Assembly: GCA_009711785.1 (NCBI GenBank)
Contig: VENA01000016.1
Location: forward strand, 217,647 to 281,646
Direction: 5' to 3'
DNA: 64,000 nucleotides
Origin: Bacillota bacterium
Lineage (GTDB): Bacteria > Bacillota > Clostridia > Tissierellales > MES13
Shown here: one piece after another, positions 4,056 through 4,316 of the stretch
How the letters are laid out: each line of letters opens with the position of its first letter
Position numbering within the stretch: the first letter of the stretch is position 1
Notes under the pieces: model-generated
Seen by the model: only the letters and a program-made list of their open reading frames with translations
What the model was told of the DNA's origin: nothing
Database searches by the model: none
Program-made: the position numbers and the translations under genes

Positions 4056-4316
4056 TTAACAACAAGACTCACTTCCAGTGAGCCATCCCTTTATAATAGC
4101 ATAAGCTCATCCAACACCTGCACTTACCTTTATTGCTTCTTTAGGACAATTTTTACTACATGCCCCACATTCTATGCATTTATCCTTATAATTAATAAAA
4201 GCTTTACCTTCACTTATAGAAAATACCCCATGGGGACATACTTTAATACACATTTTACAACCTATACATTTATCTTTATCCATGGTTATATTTGCTATAT
4301 CTTTTATATATCTCAT
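4056..4316 (-). CDS. hgcB: HgcB-like 2x[4Fe-4S] ferredoxin (mercury methylation), with in-frame TGA at 4107-4109 read as selenocysteine (candidate)
   Basis: Track ORF 4107..4325 ends at a TGA. An AAGGAG SD sequence overlaps the hgcA stop codon, and the likely start is ATG at 4316. There are two ferredoxin motifs, CIGCKMCIKVCP and CIECGACSKNCP (the HgcB-type C(M/I)ECGAC). Reading through the TGA gives ...KVSAGVG-U-AYAIIKGWLTGSESCC followed by TAA at 4056-4058. That restores an HgcB-type tail ending in Cys-Cys. Confidence 0.8.
4066..4084 (-). promoter_or_regulatory. SECIS-like stem-loop downstream of the hgcB TGA
   Basis: Minus-strand RNA GGCUCACU-GGA-AGUGAGUC forms an 8-bp stem (one G-U pair) with a GGA apical loop. 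The stem starts 22 nt after the UGA and the loop lies about 31-33 nt after it. Confidence 0.5.

Follow-up and report, generated by a model that had tools for sequence, protein, structure and literature searches.

Here we describe an hgcAB operon for mercury methylation in an uncultured, low-GC member of the Bacillota; it lies on contig VENA01000016.1 of the metagenome-assembled genome (MAG) GCA_009711785.1 and was analyzed within a stretch of 64,000 nucleotides (64 kb), referred to below as the window. HgcAB produces neurotoxic methylmercury, and the evidence gathered from the window and its relatives strongly supports a reading in which both proteins of this operon, the corrinoid protein HgcA and the ferredoxin HgcB, would be selenoproteins. 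In particular, an in-frame UGA in hgcB very probably encodes selenocysteine (Sec) at the position of an essential cysteine, Cys73 in the HgcB of D. desulfuricans ND132. At the level of sequence comparison, our analysis demonstrates hairpin-linked read-through of this UGA, which stands on an invariant Cys column. The elements of hgcB, including a hairpin resembling a selenocysteine insertion sequence (SECIS), are as follows:

4056-4316, minus strand: full read-through open reading frame (ORF) of hgcB, 86 codons plus TAA; by translation, a dicluster ferredoxin with predicted Sec70 and a C-terminal Cys-Cys.
4107-4109, minus strand: TGA at hgcB codon 70, which homolog alignment places at the Cys73-equivalent column and which is read here as Sec.
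4059-4106, minus strand: post-UGA tail AYAIIKGWLTGSESCC, 16 residues by translation, comprising a helical extension and the terminal Cys pair.
4066-4084, minus strand: SECIS-like hairpin GGCUCACU-GGA-AGUGAGUC over the W-L-T-G-S-E-S codons, supported by fold, relatives and a covariance model.
4325-4329, minus strand: Shine-Dalgarno sequence AGGAG 5' of the hgcB ATG at 4316, overlapping the hgcA stop codon (sequence inspection).

Translated from the ATG at 4316, hgcB runs as ...KVSAGVG up to the TGA at 4109-4107 and continues in frame through the tail given above to a TAA at 4058-4056. An earlier reading made from the letters of the window alone (the initial annotation) had given these coordinates, the in-frame TGA and the onward frame, all of them correctly; GenBank and gene callers annotate HgcB as a 69-amino-acid (aa) product. 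The gene is located directly 3' of hgcA, whose stop codon occupies 4329-4331, and its translation contains two CxxCxxCxxxCP [4Fe-4S] motifs, CIGCKMCIKVCP and CIECGACSKNCP. The conserved Cys of HgcB (Cys73 in ND132) stands about 12 residues past the second cluster motif, a position which is here filled by the TGA. In the alignment, every one of the 119 full-length homologs has Cys at the TGA column, as part of a GVG-C-A motif, which bears out the initial claim, made from a PGVGC context, that the TGA replaces the conserved functional Cys. Read-through also gives back the Cys-Cys tail, as had been proposed: the product ends in …GSESCC-TAA, its tail aligns with the conserved AxAIIxGWLTGxE...CC segment of homologs, and CC forms the C-terminal end in 77 of the 120 HgcB matches listed. 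When scored against the NCBIfam model of HgcB (NF040864, curated equivalog cutoff of 99 bits), only the read-through protein, with U entered as C, exceeded the cutoff (118.3 bits), the 69-aa truncation reaching 97.8 bits.

The sequence itself is reproduced in independent data. Two Logan assemblies, independent of each other, encode an identical truncated HgcB in DNA that is 100% identical to the window; so does the sister MAG GCA_009711765.1 (locus L001), which is about 96% identical to the window over 14 kb and keeps both TGAs discussed in this work. Within the 1.5-kb hgcAB region, window and sister MAG show 57 aligned differences in hgcA, roughly half of which fall on third codon positions, and a single indel, which removes 3 nucleotides in frame from the leader, 5' of the hgcA TGA.

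TGA was also encountered at the same hgcB codon in more distant lineages. In a scan with one genome per species, which covered at least 80 named hgcAB loci, the Cys73 codon was TGA in 6 and TGY in 56 among the matches listed; the tally over all loci, with the window and near-duplicates included, gave 13 TGA and 59 TGY (57 TGY after removal of near-duplicates). The lineages with TGA comprise the metagenomic lineages L007 and L008/9, the cultured organisms Anaeromonas frigoriresistens D2Q-11 (L010), Peptoclostridium litorale DSM 5388 (L012) and Oceanirhabdus seepicola ZWT (L062), and the MAGs L053, L075 and L083 (one Bacillota, one Desulfobacteraceae and one Peptostreptococcaceae). The look at relatives that the initial annotation had recommended has found TGA in eight lineages beside that of the window, in all of which the downstream frame is open, and the nine have only about 40-55% HgcA identity in common. 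After the sister MAG, the next-closest HgcA proteins are about 50-56% identical. Read with genetic code table 11, all five lineages of these next-closest relatives have C-TGA in the hgcA leader, and the hgcB codon varies, with GVG-TGA-AYAIIKGWFTGSGPNCC in L007, GVG-TGA-AYAIIKGWLTGSKPNCC in L008/9 and GVG-TGT in L004-L006.

The stretch following the UGA evolves as coding sequence. Over the 12 tail codons after the UGA, synonymous and non-synonymous differences numbered 7 and 0 against L008, 4 and 1 against L007, and 5 and 2 against L010, and similarity to relatives stops at the true hgcB stop codon. Because divergence is mostly synonymous and similarity ends at the true stop, we conclude that the post-UGA tail is translated and under purifying selection.

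Further support for recoding comes from the hairpin itself, which has 8 bp and a GGA loop, starts 22 nucleotides past the UGA and folds with a minimum free energy of -13.1 kcal/mol. As the fold of the single sequence is unremarkable, its significance derives only from the comparison with relatives. Among these related lineages, a hairpin in register (GGN loop, stem of at least 5 bp) was present in 8 of 9 Sec-type hgcB and in none of 57 Cys-type hgcB (Fisher p = 1.6e-9), many of the hairpin-free Cys-type genes encoding the same LTGSEP peptide. In the eight lineages, the stem measures 5-9 bp and the GGN loop is the eleventh codon past the UGA. Aligned with one another, the eight sequences showed 93.8% of cells paired, with compensatory changes on both sides in 6 of the 8 pairs; none of 500 shuffles was as good, and sliding the 3' arm gave 28-56% pairing. 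A covariance model trained on the seven other Sec-type hgcB, with the window held out, recovered the site (4109-4062) at 56.4 bits (E≈3e-18) as the sole significant match in 64 kb, the next match scoring 10.4 bits and homologous Cys-type sites 33.5 bits or less. These results confirm the stem-loop that had been proposed at 4084-4066, 22 nucleotides past the UGA, with Gs in its loop and at the position typical of SECIS elements, and they include the covariance-model search that had been recommended for it.

In the ninth Sec-type lineage, the deltaproteobacterial L075, the hgcB of this Desulfobacteraceae MAG (3744-3806; tail AAYIIQVW) is without the clade hairpin and has a 7-bp stem with a 4-nucleotide loop about 11 nucleotides past the UGA, pointing to a SECIS of separate evolutionary origin.

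A second in-frame TGA, absent from the initial annotation, was found in the leader of hgcA, for which we arrive at the following gene model:

4329-5462, minus strand: full hgcA ORF, 377 codons plus TAA; by translation, a corrinoid protein with an N-terminal leader carrying predicted Sec10.
5433-5435, minus strand: TGA at hgcA codon 10, predicted to give a Cys-Sec (CU) dipeptide (translation; C-TGA in relatives).
5401-5417, minus strand: hairpin ACCUCUA-GUU-UAGAGGU, a candidate SECIS for Sec10 that overlies the T-S-S-L-E-V codons (fold).
5467-5474, minus strand: Shine-Dalgarno-like GAAGGTGA 5' of the hgcA ATG at 5462 (sequence inspection).

The leader reads MTDKSNKSC-TGA-TSKKDTSSLE. With the TGA entered as Cys, HgcA matched NCBIfam NF040863 over residues 54-376 at 391.8 bits (curated cutoff of 275 bits). 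The cap helix GINVWCAAGKG, which fits the family motif N(V/I)WCA(A/G)GK, is present, and the C-terminal half, where the family has a domain of five transmembrane helices, is hydrophobic by inspection, the profile match running to residue 376. No ATG, GTG or TTG occurs between the TGA and a GTG at 5162, and a start at this GTG removes conserved sequence; the database entry, named 'acetyl-CoA synthase subunit gamma', has 351 aa and starts at an ATA, codon 27. At the homologous leader position, C-TGA is found in all clade relatives (L001 and L004-L010), and the C-TGA leader motif, with its placement judged from context only, is also found in hgcA of L012, L045, L062 and L083. The CU of the window compares with CC-rich leaders in other lineages, and nine loci combine an HgcB-TGA with an HgcA CU leader. 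The candidate hairpin lies 15 nucleotides past the UGA and is kept in five relatives, with compensatory changes in 2 of 6 pairs; other lineages have short-loop (3-6 nucleotides) hairpins of their own at a similar distance from the hgcA UGA, several of them with a 3-nucleotide loop that begins with G. The related HgcA entries P0122, P0123, P0126, P0129, P0140 and P0156 print 'CW' at this point. Because the DNA reads C-TGA (e.g. L004:3034, L005:1957), this 'W' is a gene-calling artefact of table 4 on low-GC contigs, and it hides Sec codons.

Taken together, these observations suggest a model in which the UGA at hgcB codon 70 would be decoded as Sec by SelB with Sec-tRNASec, SelB being recruited by the 8-bp GGA-loop hairpin 22 nucleotides downstream, inside the W-L-T-G-S-E codons. 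Translation would then go on through the 16-residue tail to the terminal Cys-Cys, yielding an 86-residue dicluster ferredoxin in which the U of GVG-U replaces the strictly conserved essential Cys73. Likewise, hgcA would be translated from the ATG at 5462, and read-through of the UGA at codon 10 would produce the N-terminal Cys-Sec dipeptide. In a structural model of HgcB, the helical extension begins with Cys73, and both this residue and the corrinoid are within possible reach of the flexible Cys pair; Cys73 has been proposed to receive [CH3Hg]+, its exchange (C73A) abolishes methylation in vivo, and loss of both terminal Cys removes about 95% of activity (PMC7305189). The Sec70 selenolate may take over this proposed role of Cys73 and, jointly with the flexible Cys pair, receive or pass on Hg(II) or [CH3Hg]+, and the CU pair of HgcA may form a further soft-metal site. 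In this hand-off, a selenolate at position 70 would plausibly act as a tighter soft-metal ligand of higher nucleophilicity; it would bind Hg(II) more tightly than a thiolate. Because full-length HgcB would be made by Sec read-through, its synthesis, and hence the capacity for methylation, would depend on selenium supply, a dependence which, if true, bears on the environmental antagonism of selenium and mercury.

The distribution of Sec and Cys over the two proteins differs between lineages. The sister lineages L004 (4183-4449) and L006 (4121-4387) have TGT at the HgcB Cys73 codon and no C-terminal Cys (...SKTSKTL and ...SKASKTI, respectively), and their HgcA keeps C-TGA; the Sec-type HgcB of L062 and L083 are also without the CC tail. 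Such natural variants bear on the reported need for the terminal Cys pair. In L004-L006, HgcB seems to have reverted to Cys73 and lost the Cys pair, with the CU of HgcA kept, and from the site covariation between L004-L006 and L062/L083, a selenolate at one site might compensate for thiols lost elsewhere. A broader and rather speculative proposal, which we hold to be unlikely as it stands, is that HgcAB of this clade constitutes a selenium-dependent chalcogen relay formed by the HgcA Cys-Sec, HgcB Sec70 and the terminal Cys pair.

Several observations weigh against the assignment of Sec in the window. Within the 64 kb, ARAGORN found no tRNA, and so no tRNA-Sec, and neither SelA, SelB nor SelD was found by ORF inspection and Pfam searches of ten size-compatible ORFs. 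Taken alone and compared with shuffled sequences, the hgcB hairpin is not exceptional (z = -1.63, 12 of 200 shuffles folding as well), and the hgcA hairpin is weak (z = -0.73). Rfam returned no match at the gathering threshold over the whole window and no SECIS family in a permissive scan of the operon. The hairpin comparisons cover related lineages and lack phylogenetic independence, and what the covariance model captures includes conserved coding sequence. Moreover, window and sister MAG share an hgcB without a single nucleotide difference (100% identity), so that this pair says nothing on selection on the tail, for which the more distant lineages were used. Finally, the presence of Sec in any HgcB has been deduced from sequence.

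Among the alternative explanations, the one that best withstands these data assumes that the UGA is recoded to Cys, or to some other residue, by a selC-like tRNA charged with Cys and a SelB-type factor acting on the same hairpin, which would result in an ordinary Cys73 HgcB. Anaerobes with such Sec-to-Cys recoding have been described, and the comparative evidence shows hairpin-dependent read-through but not which residue is inserted. Canonical Sec insertion is, however, by far commoner, and the cultured relatives with the same TGA belong to what we take to be selenoprotein-using groups, as exemplified by the glycine reductase of Peptoclostridium litorale. In addition, published work interprets these sites as Sec, and the HgcA-Sec species examined there encode Sec machinery (10.1101/2022.07.06.499078). 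We consider recoding to a residue other than Sec improbable.

It is very improbable that the TGA is a genuine stop, leaving a 69-residue ferredoxin as either a recent nonsense pseudogene or a natural short form, with the hairpin and the adjoining UUGUUGUU serving as terminator or attenuator. A single base change suffices to turn TGT or TGC into TGA, the 69-aa product is what gene callers and GenBank give, and a terminator scan marks 4084-4066 as terminator-like, since the CC codons provide UUGUUGUU. Yet nine lineages, with as little HgcA identity in common as stated above, all keep this codon as TGA, tail divergence is almost only synonymous, and the hairpin is kept in relatives without a following U-tract. 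The truncated protein, apart from falling under the NF040864 cutoff, would lack both the residue equivalent to Cys73 and the Cys pair, on which activity depends (PMC7305189), and its operon partner hgcA likewise requires its TGA to be read through. A much stronger terminator is moreover located past the TAA:

3985-4031, minus strand: 19-bp stem with 9-nucleotide loop and U-run, which forms the intrinsic terminator of hgcAB, positioned past the TAA and not past the TGA (fold).

This element folds at -23.7 kcal/mol (z = -7.5, none of 200 shuffles as good). With a strong terminator at 4031-3985 and no U-tract at the hairpin of relatives, the hgcB hairpin was rejected as a terminator. As the terminator hairpin is long, it also draws spurious Rfam matches to miRNA precursors (bantam, mir-3047 and others) at permissive thresholds.

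A third possibility, namely that the genome follows an alternative code with TGA as a regular sense codon for Trp (table 4) or Gly (table 25), is effectively refuted. None of the 49-52 genes in the window ends in TGA (39 end in TAA and 10-13 in TAG), the GC content is 28%, and annotation pipelines have applied table 4 to the hgcA of relatives, printing 'CW'. However, a reassigned codon would be frequent in an AT-rich genome, and no in-frame TGA was found in the other window genes (about 50, including ORFs of 1157, 871 and 759 codons), on which ground tables 4 and 25 were excluded. The only in-frame TGAs in real genes of the window are the two in hgcAB, both on known Sec/Cys positions, and in L007 and L008 the hgcB frame not only carries TGA at codon 70 but also truly ends with one. 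In the intergenic gaps of the window, no small ORF ends in TGA and no other TGA-interrupted ORFs were found. In the pooled loci fetched from low-GC relatives, TGA accounts for 7 of 41 stops. Because none of the roughly 50 window genes stops at TGA, UGA may be effectively reserved for Sec in this organism, in which case read-through would be efficient. For this reservation of UGA, as for the chalcogen relay and the site covariation described above, we found no prior account in the literature consulted on Sec-type HgcAB.

A sequencing or assembly error hiding a TGT, TGC or TGG is likewise effectively refuted: although the window stems from a MAG and the question turns on one base, the same base is read in two independent Logan read-set assemblies, in the 96%-identical sister MAG and in eight more distant lineages.

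With regard to the surroundings of the operon, window positions 4056-4510, which comprise hgcB, its downstream region and the last approximately 180 nucleotides of hgcA, are 100% identical to the sister MAG, with the surroundings differing by about 4-5%; this patch of identity may be due to recent exchange or to chance. Immediately 5' of hgcA and oriented like it are a gene for a TetM/TetO-family, ribosomal-protection-type GTPase with EF-G domains III, IV and C (5927-7876, minus strand) and, between it and hgcA, a 102-aa ORF with no function assigned (5595-5903, minus strand); the sister MAG shows this arrangement, too. The 649-aa GTPase was considered as a candidate SelB and rejected on account of these TetM-like domains.

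The initial annotation had held Sec not to be a described feature of HgcAB systems, which is incorrect. A 2022 preprint by Haft reported Sec at HgcB residue 73 in 17 of 266 proteins and CU in most HgcA, within an overlooked N-terminal extension (10.1101/2022.07.06.499078); the journal version, to which a PNAS 2024 article (PMC11588087) refers, is Haft & Gwadz, J Bacteriol 2023. A 2026 review also lists HgcB (NF040864) with the motif GVGU, e.g. WP_250697400.1, and HgcA (NF040863) with CU (PMC13188914). Given that Sec-type HgcAB was published in 2022-2023, the present finding is a correct independent rediscovery and a further mis-annotated example. It may go modestly beyond the published work in the comparative hgcB SECIS hairpin, in a CU variant outside the PCUGP context, and in naming three cultured species for direct test. 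Surveys of hgcAB rely on correct gene models, and Sec-type hgcAB are still mis-recorded in public data, with HgcB cut to 69 aa, HgcA started from an ATA codon, or HgcA translated with table 4 as 'CW'. Since truncated HgcB falls under the NCBIfam cutoff, surveys based on hidden Markov models can miss or mis-score Sec-type entries.

Compared with known systems, the HgcB described here shares with the canonical Cys-type proteins (ND132 DND132_1057; G. sulfurreducens GSU1441) the fold class, motifs, numbering and alignment column, and differs in that the canonical proteins carry sulfur at position 73, where selenium is predicted here. It agrees with the published Sec-type HgcB (NF040864, GVGU) in that Sec, in a GVG-U-A context, would replace Cys73 (D. 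desulfuricans ND132 numbering), the ninth of the invariant Cys, and in its two CxxCxxCxxxCP motifs, C-terminal Cys-Cys, location directly 3' of hgcA and truncation in databases. Its tail is about 10 residues shorter than that of most homologs (…GSESCC versus …GSEPSCDCSGGxxCC), and its source is a low-GC Bacillota MAG whose nearest HgcA relatives, the sister MAG aside, are only about 55% identical. As in Sec-type HgcA (NF040863), the predicted Cys-Sec of HgcA lies in an N-terminal extension 5' of the annotated start, and one UGA has to be read through to connect the proper start with the remainder of the protein. The motif PCUGP was perfectly conserved in 20 proteins of the preprint (10.1101/2022.07.06.499078), whereas the context here is (S/A/T)-C-U-(T/V/I/S) without flanking Pro or Gly, namely KSCUTS in the window and NKSCUVV and NNTCUII in relatives. 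In the preprint, SECIS elements were examined manually and none was given for HgcB (10.1101/2022.07.06.499078), in contrast to the clade-wide hairpin over the LTGSE codons found in this work. This hairpin differs from known SECIS entries in matching no Rfam family, its role in binding SelB being predicted. At the same time, it resembles the Gram-positive type of SECIS, described for SaoC as a short perfect stem with a small apical loop that contains G, in having a stem of 7-8 bp with a 3-nucleotide GGN loop, about 20-35 nucleotides past the UGA and inside the coding sequence, and the 7-bp stem with GGU loop described for Gram-positive SECIS fits the hgcB hairpin type (10.1101/2022.07.06.499078).

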